NCBI GenBank assembly: GCA_964649715.1
Contig: CAZYTH010000002.1
Span: forward strand, 2,248 to 66,247
Source: an uncultured Candidatus Saccharibacteria bacterium
GTDB lineage: Bacteria > Patescibacteriota > Minisyncoccia > Phycocordibacterales > UBA12445
Reading direction: 5' to 3'
DNA length: 64,000 nucleotides
The notes beneath the pieces are model-generated. The model worked only from the letters and a program-made list of their open reading frames with translations, made no database searches and was not told the origin of the DNA. A program made the translations under genes and the position numbers. Below are positions 4,548 to 38,252 of this stretch, piece after piece. The first letter of the stretch is position 1; each line of letters opens with the position of its first letter.

Positions 4548-5735
4548 ATGAATAAAAGCGGAGGACAAGCAAACTGGCGAAAGATTATGTTTTTGTTTGC
4601 TGTAATATTACTGTCTGCCTCTTTCTTTTATATAAAGTTTATTAAAACAGAAACAGTCGGATATCTCGCACCTCAAGAATTTAAAGAGGATTTATTGGCT
4701 CAAGCGGAAGATTTCAAGCCAGAAATACCCAAGAGGAAAGTTGTTCATGTAGAAACTCCGACCAGCGTTAAGGCGGTCTATATGTCTAGCTGGGTTGCGG
4801 GTACCCCGTCTTTTCGAAACCAGATTATAGAACTCATAGATAGCACAGAGCTAAATGCGGTTGTTATTGATGTAAAAGATTCAACAGGAGTGATTTCTTT
4901 CCCGATGGACGACCCTCTTGTGAAAAGCTACGAACCATTTGAAAACAGGATCAGAGATGTTGAAAATTTAATAGACACTCTACACGAAAAAAATATTTAT
5001 ATAATAGCAAGAGTAACCGTTTTTCAAGATCCGCTCCTTGCTAGTAAAAGAAATGACATTGCTCCTTTCAGAAAAAGCACAGGTGGGTTATGGAAAGACA
5101 GAAAAGGTTTGGCATGGGTGGAGACAGGTTCCACTGAGGTATGGGAGTACAATGTTGCTGTTGCAAAATATGCATACAAAATAGGTTTTGATGAAATAAA
5201 TTTTGATTATATAAGGTTTCCTTCTGATGGCGATATGAATGATATCGGTTATAGATTTTATGACCCCGCCACCACAACGAAAGCCGAAAAGTTGAGAGAG
5301 TTTTTTGAATATCTTCACGGTGAGATGAAGGCTATCGGTGCTCCAATTTCGGCCGATTTTTTTGGTATGACAATGACGAACAAAGACGACTTAAATATCG
5401 GCCAGGTACTTGAAAACGCTATCCCGTATTTTGATTTTATTGCTCCGATGGTTTATCCGTCACACTATCCTACGGGTTTTCATAATTACAAGAATCCTGC
5501 TTCTGTCCCTTATGAGATAATCAGAATATCTATGGATGAGGGAGTAAAGAGAGCTATCAGTGCAAGCTCTACTCCAAATAAACTTAGGCCATGGCTTCAG
5601 GATTTTAATTTGGGTGCGACATACACAGCAGAAATGGTGCGAGCACAGATACAGGCCACTTATGATGCGGGTTTGAATTCGTGGATGTTGTGGGACCCTT
5701 CAAATAAATACACAAGAGGGGCTTTGTTGGAGTAG
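4548..5735 (+). CDS. DUF4015-type putative glycoside hydrolase-like (TIM barrel) protein with N-terminal membrane anchor
   Basis: Signal/anchor then VKAVYMSSWVAGT...AVVIDVKDSTG, recalled as the GHL10/DUF4015 pattern. Confidence 0.45.
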   Translation: MNKSGGQANWRKIMFLFAVILLSASFFYIKFIKTETVGYLAPQEFKEDLLAQAEDFKPEIPKRKVVHVETPTSVKAVYMSSWVAGTPSFRNQIIELIDSTELNAVVIDVKDSTGVISFPMDDPLVKSYEPFENRIRDVENLIDTLHEKNIYIIARVTVFQDPLLASKRNDIAPFRKSTGGLWKDRKGLAWVETGSTEVWEYNVAVAKYAYKIGFDEINFDYIRFPSDGDMNDIGYRFYDPATTTKAEKLREFFEYLHGEMKAIGAPISADFFGMTMTNKDDLNIGQVLENAIPYFDFIAPMVYPSHYPTGFHNYKNPASVPYEIIRISMDEGVKRAISASSTPNKLRPWLQDFNLGATYTAEMVRAQIQATYDAGLNSWMLWDPSNKYTRGALLE

Positions 5736-6849: not shown

Positions 6850-7944
6850 ATGAAAATCCTTTGGTTCACATGGAAAGATAGAAAAAATCCTTTAGCCGGA
6901 GGGGCGGAAGTGGTGAACGAGGAGCTGGCAAAAAGACTGGCGAATGATGGGCATAATGTCACCTTGCTTGTCGGTGGATTTGACGGATGCGAACCTGAGG
7001 AAAATATAGACGGCTACAAGGTGGTGCGTGTCGGGACCAGATGGACAGTGTATCTGCACGCATATAGATACTACAAGAAACATTTGAAAGGTTGGGCTGA
7101 TTTAGTAATAGATGAAGTAAATACTATTCCATTTTTCTGTAAATATTATGTAAAAGAAAAGAATATACTTTTTATTCATCAGCTGTGTCGTCAAATATGG
7201 TTTTACCAGATGTTTTTCCCTCTTAATATTTTTGGTTTTGTTTTGGAACCGTTTTATCTTTGGCTTTTATCCGATTTAAAGGTTATAACCATTTCAAATA
7301 GCACAAAGAAAGATTTGATGAGATTTGGTTTTAAGCAGGGGAATATAAACATTATAAGCGAAGGGATAGAGATTGAACCGATTAAGGATGTTTCTTTAAT
7401 AAGAAAGTTTGAAAAGCCGACATTGCTCGGGTTCGGAGCTTTTAGAGAGATGAAGCGCACCGATCATATTCTAAAAGCATTTGAAATTGCTAAAGAAAGC
7501 ATGCCTGATTTAAAACTTATTCTGGCTGGCGACTCGTCTGGCGATTATGGTAAAAAAGTGTTAAATTTGATAAAAAATTCAAAATATGCGGATTCTATAA
7601 AATATTTAGGAACGGTTACTATAGAAAAAAAGATAGAATTAATGCAGAGGTCGCACTTGATCGTAGTGACGTCTGTGAAGGAAGGTTGGGGTTTGATAGT
7701 TACCGAAGCTAATTCTCAAGGAACACCCGCAGTGGTCTATAATGTTGATGGTCTGTGCGATGCTGTAAAAGATAACGAAACTGGTCTCGTGTGCCAACAA
7801 AACACCCTTGAAAATTTAGCTGAAAACATGTTAAAGTTGCTAAACAATAAGGAAAAATATCAGAAGTTAAGAGTAAACGCATGGCAGTGGAGCAAAGAAA
7901 TAAATTTTGAAAATAGTTATCGGCAATTTATGGAGGCAATATAA
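6850..7944 (+). CDS. glycosyltransferase family 4 (GT-B fold)
   Basis: C-terminal EGWGLIVTEANSQGTPAVV...ETGLV (EX7E motif) of GT4 enzymes. Confidence 0.65.
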   Translation: MKILWFTWKDRKNPLAGGAEVVNEELAKRLANDGHNVTLLVGGFDGCEPEENIDGYKVVRVGTRWTVYLHAYRYYKKHLKGWADLVIDEVNTIPFFCKYYVKEKNILFIHQLCRQIWFYQMFFPLNIFGFVLEPFYLWLLSDLKVITISNSTKKDLMRFGFKQGNINIISEGIEIEPIKDVSLIRKFEKPTLLGFGAFREMKRTDHILKAFEIAKESMPDLKLILAGDSSGDYGKKVLNLIKNSKYADSIKYLGTVTIEKKIELMQRSHLIVVTSVKEGWGLIVTEANSQGTPAVVYNVDGLCDAVKDNETGLVCQQNTLENLAENMLKLLNNKEKYQKLRVNAWQWSKEINFENSYRQFMEAI

Positions 7945-7947
7945 AAA

Positions 7948-8757
7948 ATGAAAGAACCAAAAGTTTCGGTGATAATACCGACGAAAAATTCATCCAAAAC
8001 GCTTGAAGCCTGCTTGAGATCCGTCAAAGAACAGACATATAAAAATATTGAGATAGTTGTTGTTGATAATAATTCTACCGACAATACCAAAGAAATAGCA
8101 GGCAAATATGCGGATAAAGTTTTTAATAAAGGTCCGGAAAGAAGCGCACAGGTTAATTTTGGGGTTGAACAGGCGGATGGTTTTTTTGTTTATAAAGTTG
8201 ATTCGGACTTTATTTTGGATCAGAGAGTTGTTGAGGAGTGTATAAATAAGACAGAAGAAGGATATGATGCCATTGTCGTTCATAATTCTCCGGATATTAG
8301 GGTTTCGTGGATCGCTAGATTAAGAAAGTTTGAAGTTGATATGTATAAATACGACATTGTCCATTCATCGGCACGTTTTGTTGCAAAAGATGTTTATAAA
8401 AATATTGGCGGTTTTAATGAAAAAATTATAGCAGGAGAAGATTATGATTTTCAAAATAAGTTGAACCGTGGCGGATATAAGACGGGCTTTATCGATGCAG
8501 AGGCCCTTCATTTGGGCGAGCCGACCGAATTTTGGCCACATATGAAAAAATATTACGAATATGGAAAAGATTTTGTTAACTACGTAAATGAAAACAAATT
8601 TGAATCAGGGAAACAATTAGGCTTTTTAAGAGGTGTTTATATTAAAAATTGGAAAAAGTTTTTATTTCACCCCATTACTGGTCTAGGGTTTATTTTTTAT
8701 AATATTTCAAAATATGGATTCGGAGGGTTGGGGTATTTTATGTCAAAAATTAAATAA
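7948..8757 (+). CDS. glycosyltransferase family 2
   Basis: KVSVIIPTKNSSKTLEACLRSVKEQTYKNIEIVVVDNNSTD N-terminal GT-A signature. Confidence 0.7.
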   Translation: MKEPKVSVIIPTKNSSKTLEACLRSVKEQTYKNIEIVVVDNNSTDNTKEIAGKYADKVFNKGPERSAQVNFGVEQADGFFVYKVDSDFILDQRVVEECINKTEEGYDAIVVHNSPDIRVSWIARLRKFEVDMYKYDIVHSSARFVAKDVYKNIGGFNEKIIAGEDYDFQNKLNRGGYKTGFIDAEALHLGEPTEFWPHMKKYYEYGKDFVNYVNENKFESGKQLGFLRGVYIKNWKKFLFHPITGLGFIFYNISKYGFGGLGYFMSKIK

Positions 8758-27510: not shown

Positions 27511-27700
27511 TTTACTCCGCGGGTAGGAATTTCGGTCCTTACAGGACCAGTACCCCCGATGGATTTTTTGTTCGTGCAGAGCACTCTAAAAAATGCTCAT
27601 CGGGGCTTCGAATCCTGACGAAAGCCATGGGTAATGGCTTTCTCCCGCGTTCGCAAAAACAGAAAAAGCACCATAAAGGTGCATTTCTGTTTTTACTCCC
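27511..27700. repeat. structured dispersed repeat, copy B (begins with a 14-nt copy of the tRNA-Asn 3' end)
   Basis: tttactccgcgggtagga..., ttcgaatcctgacgaaagccatgggtaatggctttctccc (9-bp perfect hairpin), then hairpin plus ttttactcc. Confidence 0.5.
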
Positions 27701-27827
27701 CAAACAGGTTCAACAACGTTGCTCTCAAGCCATTGTAAGGGTCTTTGAGATGCTCATTGAGTGGGATCGGACGCAAACAGGTCGAAAAGATGCAGGTGAG
27801 AAATGAGACACCATAAAAGAGTTTGTA

Positions 27828-28304
27828 TTATTTTTTCTTCTCTTCTATTGCTTTTTTAGTTTTGGCCTCAAGTTCGTCTGAGTCGTCTGTTCCCATGCGA
27901 TAAATTTTTTGATTTTTCATTATTATTTCGATTGCATCAAAACCTGAGACATTATATATCCACATCCTGGGCCAAAGACAGAATCTTATTCCCCAGCCAC
28001 AATACCAATGGTTTTTTACTTTTCTAACCGAAACAATCTCTTCAAGCGGAAATGTCTTTTTAAAAATCCCATAACCAAACTTAATCTTAAGATATTCTTC
28101 ATTAATGGATGTTGTTAGTGTTGTAAATGATGCAAGAATAAAAAGGATTAAAAACATCACGGAAGTAACGGCAAAGTTTGTGCCGGAGTCGACTGATGGT
28201 GGTTCGGCTCTAGCTGTAATCTGAACCCATGTGAAAAGAATCAATACTGATAAGTTGACAATTATCATTAAGTAGCCAATTTGTGTGTGTTTATATGAGT
28301 TCAT
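27828..28304 (-). CDS. hypothetical membrane protein (two TM helices plus soluble C-terminal domain)
   Basis: Hydrophobic N-terminus; possible bacterial PH-like domain, not certain. Confidence 0.35.
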   Translation of the reverse strand: MNSYKHTQIGYLMIIVNLSVLILFTWVQITARAEPPSVDSGTNFAVTSVMFLILFILASFTTLTTSINEEYLKIKFGYGIFKKTFPLEEIVSVRKVKNHWYCGWGIRFCLWPRMWIYNVSGFDAIEIIMKNQKIYRMGTDDSDELEAKTKKAIEEKKK

Positions 28305-28363
28305 AAATAATTATTTTTATCTCCTTCTTTTGTCTGTGTAATCAATAGAAGATATTTTATCCA

Positions 28364-29140
28364 TTATTCAGTAGCCATTCGAATGTTGCCACATCTATCA
28401 TTCAAATTTTCTACTGCCTTAAATATGTCATCTATTTGGGGTTCATAAGCAATAATCTTATCGTCGTTTTTAAGTTTGAGGGTTATCAATTTATCGTGGG
28501 TTTGAAATATACTTTTTACTTCACAATTATTAAGGGCGGTTAAAACAATATTCCAGTCACTGTTGGCTTCGTTTATAAAGTTTTGACCATCAGGAGTGGC
28601 ACATTGTAGAGGATCAGATTTCATAATAGGAAAACCGGCGGTTACGCAATCGTTAAAATTTCTAATTCTAGCCAGCAGATCGTTACATTTTTCGTAGCTT
28701 GCCATATCGCTTTTTGGTAAACATTCTTTTAACTCATCTGCTAGAGTAGTTTCCTTTTTAATTAAATTTTCAGTAATACTCCACAAAGAATAATATCGAC
28801 TATAGTATCTATGAACAACAACTGCACCAACTCCCGTTTGTGACTCAAAGAAATATCCTGACCCCATTTGTTCGGTAAATTCATAACCCTTATCTTTCAT
28901 AAAGGACTTAATTATCCCAAGGTTATTACTTTTAGTAATGTACTTATTGTCTCCAATATCTAGTTTTATAATATCCTCATTGCCAAAAATTAACTTAGCT
29001 ATTCCTTTTATTTGTGGCCATGGATTACCTTCTTGGAAGATAATCGGGGAATAAAAAAAGATAAAAATACCTAATACTAAAATTATTAGCGAGGTAATAA
29101 GTAGAATCTTTTTGTTTTTTGAGGAGTGTTCAAAAATCAC
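28364..29140 (-). CDS. hypothetical membrane-anchored/secreted protein
   Basis: N-terminal TM anchor; Cys-containing soluble domain. Confidence 0.35.
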   Translation of the reverse strand: MIFEHSSKNKKILLITSLIILVLGIFIFFYSPIIFQEGNPWPQIKGIAKLIFGNEDIIKLDIGDNKYITKSNNLGIIKSFMKDKGYEFTEQMGSGYFFESQTGVGAVVVHRYYSRYYSLWSITENLIKKETTLADELKECLPKSDMASYEKCNDLLARIRNFNDCVTAGFPIMKSDPLQCATPDGQNFINEANSDWNIVLTALNNCEVKSIFQTHDKLITLKLKNDDKIIAYEPQIDDIFKAVENLNDRCGNIRMATE

Positions 29141-29819
29141 AGTGAATTATTTTAAATTATTTTTTATTTCTATCCCTAAACACAACAATAAAAGTGGCGA
29201 CAATTAGTATGAGTCCAATTCCTTGAGCACCGGGGCTGTCATCAAATTCACCAAATACAATAAAGAATACCCCTAATGGTATCGCTATAATTTTTGGAGT
29301 CCAGTATAGAATTTTACTTTTTATATTCATAGACCATTGATAACACACCGAAAAACAAAAAGGTTTTACGGCAAAAAGGCTTTAAGCTTCTCAACAAAAG
29401 GTTTTTCTGACTCTAATTCTTCCGCGACTGCTGTAAACATATCACAGGGAAGGTGCTCATCAAGCGCCAAGAAGAATTTTTTTATTTTTTGCATTTCTTT
29501 TTTATTACAAGTAATAAGTGAATTATACAGTGTAAATTTTTTACAGTAAATCAAAAATACACTGGTAGTTTATACAGAGTAACTTAAGGAGATAAAAGAT
29601 TAATTTTCTTGTAAACCTTTAATCCAAAAATAACCACACATAAAGGCGGTTATTTTTGGGGAGGCATAAATGTTCCTAAACCCAGTTTTGGGCGGGGATA
29701 GGTTGGATGACACTAAAATTATGAATTCCATTTAATAGATTCCATTCGAACCTGGAGACAGTTTGCTCTTGAGTGGTTTACACTATATCTAGAATCGGGG
29801 AGATGATATAATTGGACTC

Positions 29820-30173
29820 ATGAAAGATAATAGGGAAATTATTTTAATCAGAAATTCTCTGGGGATTATTGTGGCTGGACTTGTTCTGGCTAAATATTTA
29901 TTGGAATATCACATTTACAGTGACAATGAATCTTTGGTTTCTGAAATAGCTCGTAGCGTGTCTTTTTTATTCGTACCAATACTGATAGTCGGTTTGGCAT
30001 TCACGATGTTATATTTTTCATATGTAATAATAAAAAAATCAGAGAATCACGAAGAAATTTCCCAGAGATCCGGAACGTTAAGAAAACCATTTGCCTTGGC
30101 ATTGGTTATCATCCTCACTCTTCCGATAATTTTTATTATTTTAATGATCCTGCTCAAATATAATTTTCTTTAA
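29820..30173 (+). CDS. hypothetical membrane protein
   Basis: Three TM helices. Confidence 0.3.
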   Translation: MKDNREIILIRNSLGIIVAGLVLAKYLLEYHIYSDNESLVSEIARSVSFLFVPILIVGLAFTMLYFSYVIIKKSENHEEISQRSGTLRKPFALALVIILTLPIIFIILMILLKYNFL

Positions 30174-30204
30174 ATATAGGGGAAACAAAAAGGCACACAA
30201 AAGG

Positions 30205-30535
30205 GTGTTTTTTTGATTTACTCCGCGGGTAGAAGGATTCTTCGCTTACATCGACGGTAAACCTTTTGGATATTTTATTTCATCTTCGTAAACTCAGATC
30301 CATAAAATATGCTCAAAAGGTTATTCGAATCCTAACGAAAGCCATGGGTAATGGCTTTCTCCCTTGGAGGATTCTTTCTCTATGAGAACTGTATAGGTTT
30401 CCCATTTTTTCGGATTAAAAAATCCTCAAAAATATAGGAGAACCTTTTCGAATCCTACACGGAAACCAAGCAGTTGGTTTCCTCCACTCCGTAAAATGAA
30501 AAAGACCCTATAAAGGGGCTTTTTCATTTTACTCC
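30205..30535. repeat. structured dispersed repeat, copy C (compound; contains an 18/20 match to the tRNA-Asn 3' end)
   Basis: tttactccgcgggtagaaggattcttcg... plus two ttcgaatccta.acg-hairpin-ctcc modules and a terminal hairpin plus ttttactcc. Confidence 0.5.
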
Positions 30536-30657
30536 ACATCGTGAACGAAGTTATAACCTATTTTAAGACCACGGACCAATACCATTACATACCAGCCTTT
30601 TAATTAAGATAGCCCGTGTTTGCCCTAAAATGCCCTCGTGTAGGGCTTTTCAAGTGC

Positions 30658-31896
30658 TTATTTGATAGTCTTGAGGAGTTCTGAATTGTAACCCTTTAAG
30701 TCGACCTTTTTTGAGGCATCATATGCTATGTTTTCTACTTCTTTAAGATAAACGGTGTTTTTTGAATAATCAGAGAGTGTCATGTCATTCTCATTAAAAT
30801 CCATAACCACGTTACGATTTCTGTTTTGAGTTATTTGAGCATGACTATAAGCATCGATGTAGACCATATTTTGCCATTTATCGAGTAAGCGGAAATGATT
30901 TTGACTCTCAGACCAAGCAAGTGGCACAACGTGGTGTAATTCAAAGCCTTTAATTTTGTCTTTAATTTTATGGTTAACAAAGTACTGATATTTTTCATTG
31001 AGTGACCGATCAAGTCTTTTTGGTGATTCACTGCCACTGAAACTATTCTTACCAGTTCTCAAGACTAGTTGTTCACCCCTCTGCTCGAAATACACAGTCT
31101 GGTTTAATAAAGTGTAAACCTGTTGTGCCTCATTTCTCCAATTATGAAAATCTCTTTTCTTGATTTTATTTCCAGCGAACTTTTCTGGAACTAAATCATT
31201 TTTTAATGTTTCTAGTACAGCCTGTCTTTGTATGTTTGATAAAGCCCTATACGATTTTATTAATTCAACTGCCTCGTCTGGTGTTATGTTAAAAGTCGAG
31301 TCAACAACACCAATAGCGGATACAAAAAATTGATATTCAGACAGCGAGATACTATCTATTCCATAATCAGCGTCTCTGAGAATATCAAGGACCATATCGA
31401 TAGAACCACTCAACAAAGTATCAATAGCCTTTGAGAACACGAATTCTTGATCCAAGATAGTTTGCGCAGTTATTAATTTGTGACCAAGTTCAGAGAGTGC
31501 TACGTATTTAACACTAGATCGTGCAAATGGGTCTAGTGGCTTTTTATTTTTATCAAATCTATTTATTAGCCCCATTCGATGTAAATCAACGAATAGGTTT
31601 TTTCTCATAGCATCCTGTGTACCAATGCCCGATAATTCTTTTGCGGCATCACAGAATCGTGCGTAGACTGCTTCATCGGGAGTATTCTCTGGTCTCTTTG
31701 ATAGGTCTGCTGTTCTTATTGCCATCAAAGATAAACTTGGTGCGAATTGGTCCAACAATTTCAAAATACCCACAATTCTTGTCGAATCATATCTGTTGTG
31801 TTGCGAGAAATGAAGCCCACGATATTTATCATCGGCTATTCTCCTGGTTATGAATTCCAGTGATTTATTTCCTTGGTTAATATCAATTAATGCCAT
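30658..31896 (-). CDS. restriction endonuclease-like protein with C-terminal HNH nuclease motif
   Basis: GFELHHVVPLAWSESQNHF...DAYSHAQI (HH..N..H) at C-terminus. Operonic with two DNA methyltransferases, with 14-nt overlap. Confidence 0.5.
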   Translation of the reverse strand: MALIDINQGNKSLEFITRRIADDKYRGLHFSQHNRYDSTRIVGILKLLDQFAPSLSLMAIRTADLSKRPENTPDEAVYARFCDAAKELSGIGTQDAMRKNLFVDLHRMGLINRFDKNKKPLDPFARSSVKYVALSELGHKLITAQTILDQEFVFSKAIDTLLSGSIDMVLDILRDADYGIDSISLSEYQFFVSAIGVVDSTFNITPDEAVELIKSYRALSNIQRQAVLETLKNDLVPEKFAGNKIKKRDFHNWRNEAQQVYTLLNQTVYFEQRGEQLVLRTGKNSFSGSESPKRLDRSLNEKYQYFVNHKIKDKIKGFELHHVVPLAWSESQNHFRLLDKWQNMVYIDAYSHAQITQNRNRNVVMDFNENDMTLSDYSKNTVYLKEVENIAYDASKKVDLKGYNSELLKTIK

Positions 31897-32665
31897 ATTC
31901 TTTTAAGTTCTTTTTTGCTAATTCGACATACTTTTTATCTGCATCAGCACAGATAAAATTCCTCTTTAGTCTGTTTGCAGCAACTGCCGTCGTACCACTT
32001 CCAACAAAACAATCCAAAACAAGATCACCACGTTTTGAACTTGCCTTTATTATACGCTCAACTAGGTCGAGTGGCTTAGGCGTAAGATGCTCCATTTTCT
32101 GCGTCTTTCCGTTAACTTTTCTTTTATGTCTTTCGCTTGTTATATGCCACACTTCACCACAAAAACGACCGTCTGGATTTGGAAACCAACGTTTACCATT
32201 TTTTAAGATACCTTTTTCTGCTGCGTGTTGAATGCGATCGGTAGATTCATAAGGAATTCTTATATCGTTGTAATTAAAAACATGCTTATTTGATTTAGTA
32301 AAAAATAAAATAGTCTCTTGACCATTACTATATTTTCTTTTCGAAGCACCAAGACCATCTCTTTTATCCCAGGTAATCCAATTTTGAAATACCATTTTCT
32401 TTGATACAAGGTACTGGAGAATAAAAGCGGAGTTGAACGGCGTATTGAATACATACAAACTACCATTGTCCTTTAATTTTTCAATAACTAAATCTAACCA
32501 TGCGTACGTAAAATTCAAAAAATCTGATTGTGATTTGAAAGTATCCCAATCTGCTTTATGCATATTGTAAGGGGGATCAACCACAACCAAGTCAATTGAT
32601 TTATTATCAATTTTTTTCAAAAAATCAAAGCAATCCAAATTGTGTATTTTATTAATTTCCAACAT
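31883..32665 (-). CDS. DNA methyltransferase (N6-adenine or N4-cytosine, beta class), DPPY motif
   Basis: DLVVVDPPYNM (motif IV) then C-terminal FVGSGTTAVAA (motif I): ParB-like/N6_N4_Mtase order. Confidence 0.75.
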   Translation of the reverse strand: MLEINKIHNLDCFDFLKKIDNKSIDLVVVDPPYNMHKADWDTFKSQSDFLNFTYAWLDLVIEKLKDNGSLYVFNTPFNSAFILQYLVSKKMVFQNWITWDKRDGLGASKRKYSNGQETILFFTKSNKHVFNYNDIRIPYESTDRIQHAAEKGILKNGKRWFPNPDGRFCGEVWHITSERHKRKVNGKTQKMEHLTPKPLDLVERIIKASSKRGDLVLDCFVGSGTTAVAANRLKRNFICADADKKYVELAKKNLKEYGIN

Positions 32666-32667
32666 AA

Positions 32668-33528
32668 TTATTTTTTCAATTTGAGATTGATAACTTTCTC
32701 ATAACTCTTGGATATTTCATACCCAACATAGTCTCTGCCTAATTCTTTTGCTACTTTAAGTGTGGTTCCAGAACCAGCAAATGGGTCCAGGACCAACTCG
32801 CCAACAAAAGTAAACAACTTAACACAGCGTCGAACTATCTCCTCAGGCATAAGAGCAGAATGTTCACCAAAAGCAATGTCACCCTTACCTGGAATAGGGA
32901 TATTCCATATTTGCTTTGTAAGTTCAACCCACTCCTTTTGAGTTAACTTACTTTTTTCTTTAATATCTTTAGGAACATTATTTTCAGGTTGCCCATCCTT
33001 TACATAAACAGTAATAAATTCAATAGTGTTTTGTGCATAGAAATTACGAGGGTACGGATAACTTCCAAACATTAATTTTTTTGATGGGTTTGTGCGATTC
33101 CAGATATACACATCCATCAAAAAAAGACCCGTGCCATTAATAACAGAATGTTGAATATCACTATTGATATCAAAAATATGACGATTATAGTGAGTAATTA
33201 AATTCTTTTTAAGCATCGGCATTAACGGAGTGTTTATGATAAGTTTACCGTTTGGTTTTAATACTCTCTCACACTCTTTCCATACCTCTAACATTTCTTT
33301 TATGTATTTTGAGTAGTCTGGAATATCGCCGATTTGCCCTTTTGCTTTTGAAATTTTCTTTTTTTCTTGGCGACCATCCATGGAATAGTCTTTGATATTA
33401 AAATATGGTGGACTTGTTACGATCAATTGAACAGAGTTGTCTGGCAACTCCTTCATATCTCTCGCATCCTTAAAAAATACTTTGTTCTTATATTCCATAA
33501 AATTATTTTTTGTATTGCTTTTTTGCAA
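32668..33528 (-). CDS. DNA methyltransferase, SPPY motif (N4-cytosine type likely)
   Basis: LIVTSPPYFN (motif IV) and C-terminal FAGSGTTLKVA (motif I). Confidence 0.75.
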   Translation of the reverse strand: MQKSNTKNNFMEYKNKVFFKDARDMKELPDNSVQLIVTSPPYFNIKDYSMDGRQEKKKISKAKGQIGDIPDYSKYIKEMLEVWKECERVLKPNGKLIINTPLMPMLKKNLITHYNRHIFDINSDIQHSVINGTGLFLMDVYIWNRTNPSKKLMFGSYPYPRNFYAQNTIEFITVYVKDGQPENNVPKDIKEKSKLTQKEWVELTKQIWNIPIPGKGDIAFGEHSALMPEEIVRRCVKLFTFVGELVLDPFAGSGTTLKVAKELGRDYVGYEISKSYEKVINLKLKK

Positions 33529-33709
33529 TTTTTACATTCGAAGTTAGTTGCAAAAACTTCTCAAGGTCCTGTTCGTCAATTCTCCAATAACCGACCTTTG
33601 ATGCTTTTAGTTTACCTTCATGAATGTAGCGAAATACAGAGCGTTCACTCACACGGAGCACCTCTGCAACTTCTTTTGTATTAAGAAATTTTGTAGTCAT
33701 TTTTTTCAT
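33503..33709 (-). CDS. excisionase/MerR-type helix-turn-helix DNA-binding protein
   Basis: FLNTKEVAEVLRVSERSVFRYIHEGKLKASKVGYWRIDEQDLEKFL matches the Xis/AlpA HTH_17 pattern. Confidence 0.65.
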   Translation of the reverse strand: MKKMTTKFLNTKEVAEVLRVSERSVFRYIHEGKLKASKVGYWRIDEQDLEKFLQLTSNVKIAKKQYKK

Positions 33710-34022
33710 TTGGTCTCCTTGTTACATTTTAACTTTTATGAAAACTTATGTCAAAGTGTGTCATGTTGTTTCTTGATTAAATTATACAGTGGAGGTATAA
33801 TTGGAACGCTACCCATATAGTTTGTAATAATCCAAAACGGGCAAATGCCTTTTTGTGTCACGTAGTTGTGACCAGAGAAGGGCAGTTTGTCCCTGCCACA
33901 ACTACTGTCGCCCTTTTGGGTTACAGACTATGTGGGTAGCCAGGTGTACAGGCTGCCCCTTTCTTGTTTTTAGGCGCAGCATAAAGTCGAAAGCCTGAAT
34001 TAATAATTTAGGAAAAAACTAT

Positions 34023-34481
34023 ATGCTATTTAATGTAATTTTTGCACTTTCATTTTTATTTGTTGCAGACTTGTTATGGCGACGTCACAAGAAAAACAAA
34101 CAAACAAAACTTCTCAATAATCCTGATTTTTTAATAGAACAAATTGAGGAGAAAAAAAGTAAATTCATACCTGCTATTGCTAAATCGTCTGAAAACTCAA
34201 ATTGGGATGTGTATAGCGAGATACTCAAAGATATTGAACAGACAGATTCGCAATTTTTGCAACTAAAAGAAAGGTACGTACATGATAAAGAAAAACTGTT
34301 AAATATAATAAAGGATTATGATAACTACTTAGCAAGTCAGAGTACCTTGTATTGGGCGTGGAGAGCGCTGTATACGGACCTGGAGGATGGTGCTAGCGAC
34401 AGGTTCGATGAGGAGGCAAAAGAACCTAGAATAAGAATTGAGGAAATAAAAAAACGTTTTACTGTTTTGCTAAATAAGTAA
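34023..34481 (+). CDS. hypothetical membrane-anchored protein (island cargo)
   Basis: Single N-terminal TM, charged coiled-coil-like remainder. Confidence 0.3.
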   Translation: MLFNVIFALSFLFVADLLWRRHKKNKQTKLLNNPDFLIEQIEEKKSKFIPAIAKSSENSNWDVYSEILKDIEQTDSQFLQLKERYVHDKEKLLNIIKDYDNYLASQSTLYWAWRALYTDLEDGASDRFDEEAKEPRIRIEEIKKRFTVLLNK

Positions 34482-34538
34482 GTTGCCCCAGGGCAAATGC
34501 TCGATAAATAAGGCACAAAATGGTAAAATGTATTTACT

Positions 34539-35273
34539 ATGGTTTCAGAGTTGGAATTCAAAATTAAATTTGTTTTGGAGTATTTAAGGAATCAAATACA
34601 GGATGAAAATCAGCCTGAAACTTTTGAAATTGACCAACAAAAATTTGATTTTGATAATAGTCGTGGTGGCATCATTCCTAAGAATGTAGAGGTTAGAGAT
34701 ATTGTTCGGCAAATTACCTCAGGGAATGAACTGGGTGAAATACTTGATCACATATCAGATATAACAAATGGAGAATTTAAGTTAGTATCGATTGCGCCAA
34801 TAAGAAAGGTTGATTCAAGAAATCCAATAGAACTTACTTTTGGTACCAAAAAGTTGAAAGTGGCACCAGCCCATACTCAGTGGTCTAGTGGATATAATGC
34901 TTGGACCGTTGAATACCACCCCGAAAAGAAGCATTTACAAAAGAAAATCCTATCCAATAAGCAGGTTTTTAATTTTTACATAAACAAGGATCGAGAACTT
35001 ACCCAAGTGCTACCAGATAGACCTGAAAAGACAATTAAAATTACTAAAAAACAGTACGCATTTTTTGAATTACTCGTTGAATATGACCACTCCTATGCAC
35101 CAGCAAAAGACATTGCGGAAACTATTAAAAGCCCTACGAAGTATGTTCAAAATTTAGCACAACTACTTAAAAAGGAAATAGATAAAAACTTTGTCGGTAT
35201 TACAGGAAAAGAATTCATTGAATCGGATGATGGGTATAGGATAGGTAGAAAAGTGAAACTCATATTGAAGTAG
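34539..35273 (+). CDS. protein with C-terminal OmpR/PhoB-type winged-helix DNA-binding domain
   Basis: ITKKQYAFFELLVEYDHSYAPAKDIAETIKS...VQNLAQLLKKEID...GYRIG resembles Trans_reg_C. N-terminal 150 aa unassigned. Confidence 0.45.
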   Translation: MVSELEFKIKFVLEYLRNQIQDENQPETFEIDQQKFDFDNSRGGIIPKNVEVRDIVRQITSGNELGEILDHISDITNGEFKLVSIAPIRKVDSRNPIELTFGTKKLKVAPAHTQWSSGYNAWTVEYHPEKKHLQKKILSNKQVFNFYINKDRELTQVLPDRPEKTIKITKKQYAFFELLVEYDHSYAPAKDIAETIKSPTKYVQNLAQLLKKEIDKNFVGITGKEFIESDDGYRIGRKVKLILK

Positions 35274-35717
35274 TGCACAAAAATAAATTGTGGATAAGTA
35301 GAAAAAGCACAGGAAAATAAACCTGTGTTTTTTCTATTTTGTGCACCACTTCTGGTATTTATTGTGCACATTACTAACTCCTAGAATGAGTCATAGGAGT
35401 TGGATCCAACCTACAAACGTTCGCTTTGGTCCCAACTCCCAAGGCGAATTTTTGTTTTTCAGGAATCCGCCACTGAACAGAAATGTTCACGTCACCGAAC
35501 TCTTCGTACAAGAGAACCTAATGACGAAAATTGATAGGTGGCATGTACGCCAATACGGATACCTCATCAACGTGCAGAGGAAGCGGTGTCTGAGTGGAGC
35601 AGTAACCTCCACCACCCCTCCCAGCAACCAGTACCTAGAAAACACAAGCAAGAAAGTTGAAGTGAGTCGTGGATACCAAAAGTAACTACTTCCTACTGCA
35701 ATTGAAAGGAATACGGC

Positions 35718-35906
35718 TTGGGGGGTTCGGGCATTGCAATGGCAATAGCAAATACTATGCGAGACAAACATTATCCAAATAGGTCGATAAGACTATCAGA
35801 CGAAGTGTGGGAAACATTCAAGAGCCAAGTAAAACACTCTGGTAAGTCTTGGAATTTGTTTGTGCGTAATTTGTTAGCCAAGAACAAAAACAAGCAAAAG
35901 AAATAA
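35718..35906 (+). CDS. ribbon-helix-helix (CopG/Arc-like) DNA-binding protein
   Basis: RSIRLSDEVWETFKSQVKHSGKSWNLFVRNLL: beta strand plus two helices typical of RHH. Confidence 0.45.
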   Translation: MGGSGIAMAIANTMRDKHYPNRSIRLSDEVWETFKSQVKHSGKSWNLFVRNLLAKNKNKQKK

Positions 35907-36071
35907 GTTTTATGATTAGCCAGCAAACATTACAAGAATTCAAAGAGATCTTTGAAAAAGAACTCGGACCAATGCCAGACGAGGAAGTCTTGCTTGATTC
36001 GGCTTGTGATTTGCTGACACTGTTTGATAACACCTACAAACCCATAAAAAAGGAATGGGTTGAGAAATTTC

Positions 36072-36285
36072 CCCCAGGGCAAAAAGAAATGGTGGAAAAT
36101 GGACAATTTATTGCCCCAGGGCAAAAAATAAACCAAGAAAACCAAGAAAATAATTTCCCCAGGGCAAAAATAACAGGCAATAACAGATAAAATTATCTAA
36201 TAAATTGCCCCAGGGCAACAAAAAACGGTAGAAAACGGATAAATAATTCACCTTATGCAAATACACAATTATTGCCCCAGCGCAA
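36072..36285. repeat. iteron-like direct repeats, five copies of TT(G/T)CCCCAGGGCAAAAA; sixth copy at 34486-34496
   Basis: Cores at 36072, 36114, 36157, 36208 and 36275 (the last with one mismatch); spacing 42, 43, 51 and 67 nt. Confidence 0.55.
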
Positions 36286-36391
36286 AAAGAAGTGGTGAAT
36301 GTGGATAGTTTTATGTAAAAAGTCATTGGAGTCATGCCAATCCACTAGACTTCTATTAAAAATTAAGGCATGTTCGTAATAAGAAAACCCT

Positions 36392-36577
36392 ATGAAAAAA
36401 ACAAGCAAAGTAAGTCAATACTGGAAAAGTAGAGCAACCTTCATAAACCAACATTTAGGTGCTGAGGTACAACCACTTACTCCCTTAGAACTAAGAGAAA
36501 TGCATAGTCGAAGCATTAAGAGAGGAATTAGCCATAGAAAATTAAATCCAAAGTTATATGAAAACCCAACCAAATAA
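36392..36577 (+). CDS. small basic protein immediately upstream of and overlapping the recombinase start
   Basis: 61 aa, lysine/arginine-rich. Speculative recombination directionality factor or leader peptide. Confidence 0.2.
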   Translation: MKKTSKVSQYWKSRATFINQHLGAEVQPLTPLELREMHSRSIKRGISHRKLNPKLYENPTK

Positions 36578-38192
36578 CCCAATCAAGTACTTTATTTATG
36601 CCCGCAAGTCGAGCGAGGATAAAGAAAAACAAGTCGCATCTATTGAGGACCAGTTAGAAGTTCTTAATAAAATCGCAATACAAAATAACATTAAAATAGT
36701 ACATGTATATGAGGAATCACAATCAGCCAAAAAACCAGGCAGACCACAATTCACCGCCATGCTCGAACGGATTATTAAAGGCGATGCTAGTGGGATACTT
36801 TGTTGGAAACTTGATCGCCTGGCTCGCAATCCTATTGATGGTGGGCAGATAAACTGGCTACTTCAACAAGGAACAATACAAATTATTAAAACAAACGAGC
36901 GAGATTACTACCCAAGCGACAACGTTTTGATGATGCAAGTTGAACTTGGTATGGCTAACCAATACATTCGAGACCTTTCATCAAATGTAAAGCGTGGGCT
37001 CGCTAAGAAATTACGTGATGGCTGGTTACCAGGTCTTGCACCTATCGGATACTTAAACGATCGAACAAACGAAAAAGGAAATCGCACAGTTATGAATGAT
37101 CCTGATAGATTTGTACTGGTTCGTAGAATATGGGACCAAGCACTTACTGGTAATTACACAGTGCCTCAGTTATGGGAGTACTCGAGAAAAGAATTGAATC
37201 TAACAACCGTACTAAGACGAAAGTCTGGAGGTAAGCCATTATCAAAAAGCGCAATGTATTCATTACTCACTAACCCGTTTTATTACGGAATGATTCGGTA
37301 TCCTGAAAAGACTGGTGAACTACATCAAGGTAAACACGAACCAATGATAACGGTCCAAGAATTTGACCGTGTACAAGACATAATTGGCACTCGTAACGCA
37401 ATACGACCTAAGAATGAAGTGTTTGCTTTTACTGGTCTTATGAGGTGCGGTAACTGCGGTTGCTCAGTAACTGCTGAAAGTAAAATAAAGCGATGTAAGA
37501 ATGGAAATTCGCATTACTATACCTACTACCATTGCACTAAAAAGAAAGTCGACATTAAATGCGATCAAAAAAGTGTAGAGGTACGTAAACTAGAGACTAT
37601 GTTCAAAGAGAAATTGATGAACTTGCAAATCTCAGATGCGTTCAAAGCATGGGCAATAAAACATTTGCACGAAATAAGAACCACTGAGGCAGATAGCAAC
37701 AAAATAGCAATGAGTGTGGCATCCAAAGAACTCGCAACCGTGTCAGAGCAACTAAGAGCACTAACTTTGAATTACACATCACCACAGAACATAAACAGAT
37801 CGATAATGACCGAGAGTGAATACTTGGAATTTAAGAATGACCTATTAAAAAAGAAAGAGACCGCAGAGAGTCGAGTTAAAACAACATCAGACGAACTCGA
37901 GTCTTGGGTTGAACTTAGTGAAAAAACTTTTAATCTAGCGTTCTATGCGAGTGTTTGGTTTGAAAAAGGAACGAACGAACAACGTAAAGCAATAATGTCG
38001 TGTTTAGGCTCGAACCTCACACTGAAAGATGGAAAAATCCAACTATACATGCATCCTTTCATTGAAACGCTTATTCAAAACAAAAAATATGTCACTATTG
38101 AGAATCCAAAGGTTAGAACCTCTGAAAACTCAATGTACATAAGACAAAACGCCGCTTTAGGCGACGTTTCATCAAAGTGGCTCCGCGGGTAG
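36558..38192 (+). CDS. large serine recombinase (resolvase-domain integrase)
   Basis: YFIYARKSSEDKE...IEDQ resolvase N-domain with catalytic Ser. Recombinase domain and CGNCGC...YYHC zinc-ribbon. The 3' end overlaps tRNA-Asn. Confidence 0.85.
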   Translation: MKTQPNNPIKYFIYARKSSEDKEKQVASIEDQLEVLNKIAIQNNIKIVHVYEESQSAKKPGRPQFTAMLERIIKGDASGILCWKLDRLARNPIDGGQINWLLQQGTIQIIKTNERDYYPSDNVLMMQVELGMANQYIRDLSSNVKRGLAKKLRDGWLPGLAPIGYLNDRTNEKGNRTVMNDPDRFVLVRRIWDQALTGNYTVPQLWEYSRKELNLTTVLRRKSGGKPLSKSAMYSLLTNPFYYGMIRYPEKTGELHQGKHEPMITVQEFDRVQDIIGTRNAIRPKNEVFAFTGLMRCGNCGCSVTAESKIKRCKNGNSHYYTYYHCTKKKVDIKCDQKSVEVRKLETMFKEKLMNLQISDAFKAWAIKHLHEIRTTEADSNKIAMSVASKELATVSEQLRALTLNYTSPQNINRSIMTESEYLEFKNDLLKKKETAESRVKTTSDELESWVELSEKTFNLAFYASVWFEKGTNEQRKAIMSCLGSNLTLKDGKIQLYMHPFIETLIQNKKYVTIENPKVRTSENSMYIRQNAALGDVSSKWLRG

Positions 38193-38252
38193 GATTCGAA
38201 CCTACGACCAACCGCTTAACAGGCGGTCGCTCTACCACTGAGCTACCGCGGA
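38178..38252 (-). tRNA. tRNA-Asn (anticodon GUU), CCA encoded
   Basis: Reverse complement tccgcggtagctcagtggtagagcgaccgcctGTTaagcggttggtcgtaggttcgaatcctacccgcggagcca folds as a cloverleaf. 7-bp acceptor stem; ctgttaa anticodon loop. Confidence 0.85.

Follow-up and report, generated by a model that had tools for sequence, protein, structure and literature searches.

A conserved array of composite dyad units upstream of the large serine recombinase gene of a tRNA-Asn-integrated island in a Candidatus Saccharibacteria contig

We analyzed 64,000 nucleotides (nt) of contig CAZYTH010000002.1 (positions 2,248 to 66,247 of the forward strand; hereafter the window), which derives from an uncultured Candidatus Saccharibacteria bacterium. 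The window carries an 8-kb island (30217-38192) integrated at a tRNA-Asn gene by a large serine recombinase (LSR), and this island holds all copies of a short repeated motif. Five composite units built on the motif span 240 bp directly upstream of the LSR gene, and one solitary copy lies elsewhere in the island. The array is a genuine cis-element, conserved among relatives, and a variation on the iteron/operator theme. As to its present role in this initiator-less copy of the island, we tentatively, and at somewhat below an even chance, favor multi-site docking of a dimeric element-encoded protein, possibly an HTH_17 protein; the platform would control the LSR gene and would have evolved from a replication origin.

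When the core CCCCAGGGCAA was searched with no more than one mismatch, it was found at 34486, 36072, 36114, 36157, 36208, and 36275, always on the + strand; the remainder of the 64 kb contained none. The chance expectation was 0.40 matches, and none of 100 shuffles reached six copies. An earlier sequence-only reading of this DNA had given exactly these positions and a spacing of 42-67 nt; the distances between neighboring copies of the array are 42, 43, 51, and 67 nt. Its placement of the array downstream of a ribbon-helix-helix (RHH) gene and upstream of the recombinase gene was also correct, as was that of the sixth copy, which starts 2 nt after the stop of the gene at 34023. The longer sequence TTGCCCCAGGGCAA, under which all six copies had been announced, is complete in only three of them. 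Occurrence at random genomic positions, which had been named as an outcome speaking against the motif, was not seen within the 64 kb, where the motif is confined to the element. A scan of public sequences for two CCCCAGGGCAA copies 28-58 nt apart returned 7 viral and 99 genome loci; among the matches listed, nearly all were unrelated, most came from high-GC taxa, and none came from the candidate phyla radiation (CPR), which is consistent with chance or with Pro-Gln-Gly coding repeats.

The copies had been described as direct rather than palindromic, a description that did not hold. Each copy is a 14-bp dyad, namely a 6-2-6 inverted repeat TTGCCC-CA-GGGCAA with the general form TTGCNC-NN-GNGCAA, which is perfect at 34483, 36111, and 36205 and has five of its six positions paired at 36069, 36154, and 36272. 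Every array unit consists of this dyad, an A-run, and a pair of direct sub-repeats of ~9-10 nt (the doublet). The variable core of the doublet is identical inside a unit and different among units (ATGG/ATGG, ACCA/ACCA, ACAG/ACAG, ACGG/ACGG, and GTGG/GTGG). On the + strand, unit 1 (36069-36110) has the dyad TTCCCC-CA-GGGCAA (36069-36082, 5/6 paired) and the doublet AAATGGTGG/AAAATGGAC; its counterpart in lineage L191 has a perfect dyad. Unit 2 (36111-36153) has the perfect dyad TTGCCC-CA-GGGCAA (36111-36124) and AAACCAAG/AAAACCAAG. Unit 3 (36154-36204) has TTTCCC-CA-GGGCAA (36154-36167, 5/6 paired), AACAGGCA/ATAACAGATA, and an AT-rich spacer, and unit 4 (36205-36271) has the perfect TTGCCC-CA-GGGCAA (36205-36218), AAACGGTAG/AAAACGGATA, and a long spacer. 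Unit 5 (36272-36308), the promoter-proximal one, has TTGCCC-CA-GCGCAA (36272-36285, 5/6 paired) and AAGTGGTG/AATGTGGATAG, and is homologous to the last unit of the related arrays (..AAATAAACGGTGAAAAyGG..). The most uniform part of these units is the dyad, which is the same as that at the promoter-like site described below.

AAA tracts recur over the array with a periodicity of 10.5 nt, which ranked first of 981 windows and lay at about the 99th percentile of shuffles. The AT-rich unwinding element that the sequence-only reading had proposed to look for did not stand out: the best 40-nt stretch near the array (at 36167) is 82.5% AT, above the window-wide 95th percentile (80%) and below the 99th (87.5%). 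GC skew was uninformative at the scale of an 8-kb island. As RNA, the array folded no better than shuffled sequences (z = -0.85), and the mismatches of the imperfect copies are C.C, U.C, A.C, and G.G without any wobble pair. No Rfam match was found in the array, two tRNAs alone passing the gathering thresholds; a sub-threshold scan of 33400-36700 gave weak BSnc120 and MIR408 hits at 35239-35387, far under the gathering scores, and none in the array. Because the mismatches are non-wobble, the folding is ordinary, and Rfam matches are absent, we regard the dyad symmetry as a dimer-type feature of duplex DNA.

The array was compared among a close set of ten related lineages (L107, L108, L109/L110, L111, L112, L191, L192, L193, and L194/L195), whose recombinases are 71-90% identical to that of the window where the contig includes the gene. 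In all ten, an array of 1-5 units lies directly upstream of the recombinase gene, followed, where the contig reaches, by a block of ~80 nt conserved up to the start codon. Five units are present in the window and in L191, which is near-identical to the window at the DNA level, and just one or two in L192, L193, and L194. The dyads of the relatives vary yet stay symmetric (TTGCCC/GGGCAA, TTCCCC/GGGGAA, TTTCCC/GGGAAA, TTACCT/AGGTAA, TTCCCT/AGGGAA, and TTGTTCC/GGAACAA), and clearly different dyad sequences occur within one array in L107, L108, and L109. For 22 distinct 14-mers, taken from units partly chosen for pairing, 90% of the cells were complementary against 76% in shuffles, and 18 two-sided changes were counted against 5.5 expected; either value was reached in 0 of 500 shuffles.

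Only one close lineage, L108, carries a gene for a lambda-O-like initiator (178 aa), the other nine of ten having no initiator. Eight of ten lineages, seven of them without an initiator gene, retain the half-site ATAAACGGTGAAAA, the first one in the last unit; the function of the array therefore seems independent of an initiator in cis. In L193 and L194, the TTGCGC..GCGCAA type is seen in the array and at a third site, within a cargo gene; in L194 it is also seen at the promoter site. This joint change of site type argues for a single trans-acting binder. The third dyad copy lies in a ResIII-type restriction gene (320-333 in L193, TTGCGC-CA-GCGCAA; 285-298 in L194), far from the promoter and array sites.

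The open reading frame (ORF) 35912-36190 (+ strand; here ORF92) does run into the repeats, as had been pointed out. Residues 1-52 (35912-36067) correspond to a small conserved protein, and the other 40 codons (36068-36190) extend into the array. The N-terminal 52 residues were found beside the recombinase family in about 40 loci, and ORF92 had no match in Pfam, PHROG, or PDB sequences. The homologs stop earlier and have unrelated tails. Eight lineages (L107, L108, L109, L111, L112, L192, L193, and L194) have an extra gene of 82-111 aa (p82), with only a sub-threshold DUF5681 match, between the ORF92-like gene and the array. The array is non-coding and begins beyond the p82 stop in L108, L112, L192, and L193; in L107, L109, and L194, only the last codons of p82 enter the first dyad. 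In the window and L191, p82 is deleted, and ORF92 therefore reads into units 1-3. That ORF92 is a genuine repeat protein with PPGQK, APGQK, and FPRAK repeats is accordingly most improbable, even though its frame spans units 1-3 and the L191 product has the same length (92 aa). The near-identical DNA of L191 gives no independent support, units 4 and 5 are beyond the end of the ORF, and a separate gene precedes the array in eight relatives, in four of which the array is non-coding. Given the p82 deletion and the unrelated homolog tails, the tail is best taken as a read-through artefact; the sequence-only reading had named a conserved repeat protein as a further outcome against it, and outside L191 the tail is not conserved.

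An origin-like ancestry of the array becomes apparent in more distant relatives. About 25 loci (L113-L141), with recombinases 55-65% identical to that of the window, carry, in this order, an ORF92-like gene, a protein of ~300-330 aa, the recombinase, and tRNA-Asn. The middle protein has a Pfam HTH_36 domain and PHROG matches to 'replication initiation O-like'. Its gene contains, in the 3' half, 24-nt units (three or four) that follow the pattern CCxTTTATAAAx'GG..AAAAx'GG, together with other palindromes, and the direct half-sites AAACGG, AAATGG, and AACAGG are of the same kinds as the doublets in the window. The motif CCCGTAATA(A/G)CGG is read within the O-like gene in two codon phases (15 vs 9 loci; e.g., L113 5784 and L115 5794), so that it must be constrained as DNA and not through the encoded protein. 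The C-terminal half of the O-like initiator tolerates frame changes, with the DNA motif preserved.

In a third clade (L153, L145, and L146; 44% recombinase identity), an ORF92-like gene, an O-like gene (198 aa in L153), and the recombinase gene are accompanied by a non-coding array upstream of the recombinase (5590-5880 in L153; 5584-5854 in L146), which is very regular, with 5-7 units of ~45 nt each. These units contain perfect or near-perfect 9-nt tandem doublets, i.e., two copies each of CCCCAACAC, CCCTAACAC, CTCCAACAC, or TTCGGACA, whose first bases vary from unit to unit. Doublets identical within a unit and different between units thus occur in all three clades, and the repeat sequence itself differs from clade to clade. 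In L108, the array is downstream of the O-like gene with p82 in between. Outside the close clade, the repeat density upstream of the recombinase was higher where an O-like gene is present (median z 3.8 vs 0.7, Mann-Whitney P = 5e-5), in a test that ignores the relatedness of loci and effectively compares three O-positive clades. A cognate initiator gene beside or around the repeats was found in L108, L113-L141, L145, L146, and L153. In the window it was not: tblastn searches of the 64 kb gave no hit when the O-like initiators of L108 (5329-5865) and L128 (4986-5975) served as queries, and Pfam and PHROG scans of island ORFs of at least 60 aa revealed no replication protein.

At the level of the family, the arrays are best read, on these comparisons, as replication origins. 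In lambda, the origin lies in the middle of gene O and contains 4-6 iterons, which are themselves imperfect inverted repeats of 19 bp (PMC7466680); the iterons of RepA_N replicons are semi-palindromic, and the PLE satellite pairs an LSR with an iteron origin (PMC7145576). The iteron idea of the sequence-only reading thus gained from the relatives, whose arrays adjoin a lambda-O-like initiator gene, and lost in the window, where neither an initiator nor a marked AT-rich element was found. Its broader proposal of multiple protein-binding sites, whether iterons or an operator array, survives in both of the leading readings, and an autonomous origin is doubtful. In a 46%-identical relative (L147), a 357-aa protein encoded at 4626-5699 adjoins the recombinase; by eye it resembles a RecA-fold RepA-type (AAA_25) helicase and takes the place of the O-like initiator. 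If so, the recombinase family is linked there to a different kind of replication module.

The solitary copy is a composite unit as well (34483-34529, + strand). Its perfect dyad (34483-34496) ends 4 nt before the -35 hexamer of a sigma-70-like site with TG (TCGATA-17-TAAAAT, 34501-34529), whose -10 region overlaps the doublet AAATAAGGCAC/AAAATGGTAAAA; the site is upstream of the gene at 34539. The dyad and the promoter-like site are kept in eight elements, the relatives being L107, L108, L109, L111, L191, L192, and L194. A position beside core promoter elements, as an operator would have, is thus seen clearly at the solitary copy and only weakly at the array. For the recombinase gene, a promoter can be inferred from conservation: the block between the array and the start codon (36320-36394, + strand) contains a putative TAGACT (36346-36351), 17 nt, and CATGTT (36369-36374), with the ancestral ATG at 36392, and the equivalent of L153, at the same place, is TTGACT-17-CATTTT. 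The array units would lie ~95-310 bp upstream of this putative promoter. Between the ancestral start at 36392 and the actual one at 36558 there are 166 nt that are missing in relatives; 36553-36589 is a 70% copy of 36376-36412, and a 61-aa ORF that arises in this way runs, in a different frame, over the start of the recombinase.

The RHH protein and the winged-helix protein encoded next to the motif had been suggested as its binders, and neither follows the dyad in its distribution. The gene behind the solitary dyad encodes a 244-aa protein (34539-35273, + strand) with a C-terminal OmpR/PhoB-type winged helix; the best structural match of its model (mean pLDDT 75) was the DNA-binding domain of AdeR (TM-score 0.77, normalised by the target). 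Exact-protein look-ups returned no record for the 244-aa protein or for the recombinase of the window. In L107, L108, L192, and L194 it is replaced by an unrelated gene of 276-294 aa. Because two unrelated kinds of gene thus follow the same dyad, the solitary dyad is not an autoregulatory site of the downstream product, and autoregulation by the winged-helix gene was rejected in view of L107 and L108. The Arc-like RHH gene (35718-35906, + strand) occurs only in the window, L191, and L109/L110, that is, in 3 of about 10 related lineages keeping the array. The protein that best tracks the dyad is an excisionase/AlpA-like HTH_17 protein (33503-33709, - strand), encoded at the head of the leftward cargo operon. 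It was detected in nearly all dyad-bearing elements sampled, with L112 and L193 as exceptions, and was not detected in the distant clade within the ~6 kb of upstream sequence examined. Its DNA-binding segment is invariant in all close and intermediate relatives, the neighboring proteins being 27-90% identical, and it is unchanged where the dyad shifts from TTGCCC to TTGCGC. By this correlation, the HTH_17 protein is possibly the binder.

If the array is a docking platform, the 14-bp operator TTGCNC-NN-GNGCAA would suit a dimer and would be followed by two helically phased A-tract half-sites, five such composite units being displayed on intrinsically curved DNA upstream of the putative recombinase promoter. 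One element-encoded protein would occupy both the array and the solitary site upstream of 34501-34529; a single protein is probable at both places because the same composite unit recurs upstream of the -35 hexamer. The shared binder, for which the invariant HTH_17 protein would be the best candidate, would couple expression of the recombinase, and thereby an excision/integration switch, with the rightward genes. The platform would descend from an iteron origin located after, or embedded in, the lambda-O-like initiator gene of related elements. Since the island has lost the initiator, replication probably does not start from its own array. As precedents, AlpA activates intA in CP4-57, and the binding sites of P2 Cox and 186 Apl are phased repeat arrays, found both at a promoter and in the int/att region. 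What the sequences show is the anatomy and conservation of the units, their dyad symmetry, a motif common to two sites, an ancestry resembling an origin, and no initiator gene; we infer the identity of the binder and the control of recombinase transcription as the output.

Several points weigh against a docking platform. The link between HTH_17 and the dyad is correlative. Five operators 42-67 bp apart and 95-310 bp from the promoter would be unusual for simple repression, and the -10 hexamer of the putative recombinase promoter, CATGTT, is weak and was not called by a promoter scan. Both TTGCGC.. and TTACCT.. dyads are held by L107, which is awkward for a single specific binder, and the partial choice of units for pairing introduces an ascertainment bias into the symmetry test. 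The ancestry of the array and its association with the initiator gene in relatives fit an origin equally well. Finally, a platform would leave the identity of the doublets within a unit unexplained; we can only suggest that slippage, repeatedly rebuilding a selected two-copy state, homogenises them.

It is possible, though in our view rather unlikely, that the array still functions as an origin whose dyad iterons are fired by an O-like initiator supplied in trans from a sibling element, or by an unrecognised initiator of the island, in which case the excised 8-kb circle could replicate. The homologous position in relatives is occupied by arrays inside the 3' half of the HTH_36 initiator gene (about 25 loci), just downstream of it (L153, L145, and L146), or after p82 (L108), and the clade-specific repeat sequences are as expected for iterons co-evolving with their initiator. 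The two-phase codon reading, the density that tracks the O-like gene, the precedent of dyad-symmetric iterons in origin lambda (PMC7466680), and the phasing of the A-tracts also fit an origin, and the one or two units left in the initiator-less L192, L193, and L194 look like decay. On the other hand, no O-like or other replication gene is present in the element or the 64 kb, no unwinding tract is outstanding, and the density test is blind to kinship. Furthermore, the dyad recurs at an unremarkable promoter-like site and is restricted to a clade in which nine of ten lineages lack an initiator, and the array has been kept without one, here growing to five units. An unlikely variant is that the initiator-less island hitch-hikes as an origin only, keeping and expanding a hybrid iteron/operator array to capture sibling initiators or to titrate them as an incompatibility weapon, within an undescribed family of CPR elements. 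The private, internally duplicated doublets would then reflect a constraint not seen in classical iterons, and the family module, comprising an ORF92-like gene, an O-like initiator, an iteron array, and an LSR at tRNA-Asn, would define small integrative-replicative elements. Alternatively, the array could be a functionless relic of the ancestral origin from whose loss too little time has elapsed. The missing initiator, the unit number of 1 to 5 among relatives, and the drift of the dyad left arms between the window and L191 (G, C, or T at position 3 in units 1, 3, and 5) are compatible with decay. We consider a relic improbable, since the array, its position, and ATAAACGGTGAAAA persist across 71-90% recombinase identity, perfect dyads have been kept through two-sided changes, five units are intact here, and the motif is also kept at a conserved promoter-like site.

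Other roles have little in their favor. RHH proteins of the ParG, ParR, and omega types bind repeat arrays beside their own genes, and the weakly DUF5681-like p82 gene of the relatives ends exactly at the first unit; the array might therefore be a centromere-like partition site or a packaging site of the pac/cos type bound by one of these proteins. This is very unlikely: no partition NTPase, terminase, or structural gene was found in any element, the RHH gene is missing from most array-bearing relatives and the DUF5681-like gene from the window, and there were no relatives among IMG/VR viral contigs. Hardly more probable is an action as RNA, either as a row of hairpins for protein binding, processing, or stability in the recombinase leader or an upstream 3' untranslated region, or as a guide array of the TIGR kind. 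The units are palindromic and variable and directly follow stops (gene 34023 here; p82 in L108 and L112), and the stem-loop arrays of TIGR systems, which occur in CPR bacteria, likewise combine variable palindromes with two short spacers (PMC12045711). However, the 2-nt center permits a stem of only 5 bp, and the mismatch pattern, fold score, and Rfam result given above do not point to RNA. Unit length is irregular (42-67 nt), box C/D motifs (UG...CCA) are not conserved, one 'spacer' of a unit duplicates the other, and no Nop/Tas-like protein was detected, the 244-aa model matching only OmpR-type winged helices. Moreover, the doublets share k-mers with the tRNA/att region no more than random window segments do (P = 0.82-0.96).

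Four further candidates were rejected. The repeat, at only 14 nt, is short for a CRISPR-like array (23-50 nt), and no Cas protein was detected. Intrinsic terminators do not fit, with an A-run after the hairpin on the + strand and a T-run before it on the - strand, and only the solitary copy was flagged, weakly. A role as attachment (att) or accessory sites of the recombinase is not suggested by any likeness of the units to the att core or its flanks. A host LexA-type box, for which the Fibrobacter motif may be TGCNC-N4-GNGCA, disagrees with the units in spacing.

Among known systems, P2 Cox, 186 Apl, and AlpA resemble the island in the small element-encoded winged-helix protein of the Xis/AlpA type, the logic of excision control, and the phased repeat sites at a promoter and beside the recombinase gene. 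They differ in serving tyrosine integrases through direct repeats (cox boxes), whereas the island has dyads, for which binding by HTH_17 is only a candidate. LSRs are not known to need arm-type sites. In the iteron plasmids pPS10, F, P1, and R6K, one recognition sequence is likewise used in an array and as a single symmetric promoter operator. However, their operator is at the rep promoter and their iterons are asymmetric direct repeats of 17-22 bp with a spacing of about 22 bp, whereas the gene behind the operator of the island is variable and is not an initiator. The lambdoid origin is similar in having direct copies of an imperfect inverted repeat on bent, A-tract-rich DNA, in or next to the O-type initiator gene, a placement seen in the relatives (PMC7466680). 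In contrast, the island has neither the initiator gene nor a clear AT-rich unwinding tract, its dyad is 14 bp (6-2-6) and not 19 bp, its units are composite and irregularly spaced, and the dyad also occurs at an unrelated promoter-like site. The Vibrio cholerae PLE is, like the present element, a small LSR-integrated chromosomal island with a non-coding array of semi-palindromic repeats, which is the origin for an initiator encoded by the island (PMC7145576). Unlike PLE and the RepA_N replicons, the relatives have an HTH_36/O-like initiator and the island has none; furthermore, there is no evidence of a helper phage, no relatives were found in viral contigs, the host belongs to the CPR, and the target is tRNA-Asn. 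TIGR-Tas arrays share tandem units, variable palindromes, two short variable segments, and occurrence in CPR bacteria and mobile elements (PMC12045711), but the island has no box C/D, no regular unit length, and no Nop-domain protein, and the variable segments of its units are mutual copies.

Mobile elements of the CPR have barely been characterized, and these organisms are hard to study genetically. The comparison defines a widespread family of small tRNA-Asn-targeting LSR islands whose conserved core combines the recombinase with a repeat array, an O-like initiator, and a small protein of unknown kind, and the array of the window shows how an origin can survive and be rebuilt after loss of the initiator. 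The 14-bp dyad, the phased doublets, and the short list of binders are perhaps usable for replicons or switches in CPR hosts. If the array is only an operator cluster, it would represent ordinary mobile-element regulation.

The island has all features of an LSR integrative element, i.e., a recombinase with Resolvase, Recombinase, and zinc-ribbon domains and a short core repeated at a specific target. The LSR (544 aa; 36558-38192, + strand) contains Resolvase PF00239, Recombinase PF07508, and Zn_ribbon_recom PF13408, and the 3' end of its gene overlaps the att core and the 3' end of the target, tRNA-Asn(GTT) (38178-38252, - strand). The same tRNA is the target in seven relatives (L108, L109, L111, L115, L122, L128, and L133). 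More than 6000 database proteins matched the recombinase at E <= 1e-30; the few homologs with names are from Parcubacteria (Brennerbacteria, Taylorbacteria, and Zambryskibacteria), and, judging solely by these, the hosts of the related elements are probably Parcubacteria. The left att core TTTACTCCGCGGGTAG is at 30217-30232 (+ strand) and the right core at 38177-38192. The core CTCCGCGGGTAG occurs at 27511, 30217, and 38177, the last copy being within the 3' end of tRNA-Asn. The cores TTTACTCCGCGGGTAG at 27511-27526 and at 30217 bound a second, recombinase-less element (27511-30232) in tandem with the island. The two elements have in common a left-end block of 40 nt that is 98% identical (27607-27646 vs 30324-30363), and the recombinase-less element encodes only small membrane-like ORFs.

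On its + strand, the island encodes, in order, a 152-aa membrane protein, the solitary dyad, the 244-aa protein, the Arc-like RHH protein, ORF92, the array, and the recombinase. The - strand operon comprises HTH_17, two N6_N4 methylases, and a 412-aa ORF without a family match, so that the cargo (30658-33709) resembles a restriction-modification operon headed by HTH_17; behind the same HTH_17 gene, the relatives have a single N6_N4 methylase of 585-624 aa and a ResIII/DEAD/RE_endonuc protein. The promoter region from which HTH_17 and the 152-aa gene diverge contains a 20-nt inverted repeat (33808-33827 and 33921-33940; 90% complementary, 93 nt apart), which is kept in L194 (3770-3900). Between the variable gene and the ORF92-like gene, L192 (7560-7990), L194 (5030-5450), and L107 (about 7855-8318) have a GC-richer non-coding block of ~430 nt that shows complementarity over long distances as well as changes between L192 and L194 that look compensatory. 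The block is thereby a candidate for a structured RNA; that of L192 had no Rfam match. In the window, L191, and L109, a different non-coding block of ~365 nt (35353-35717 in the window) is found instead, together with the RHH gene.

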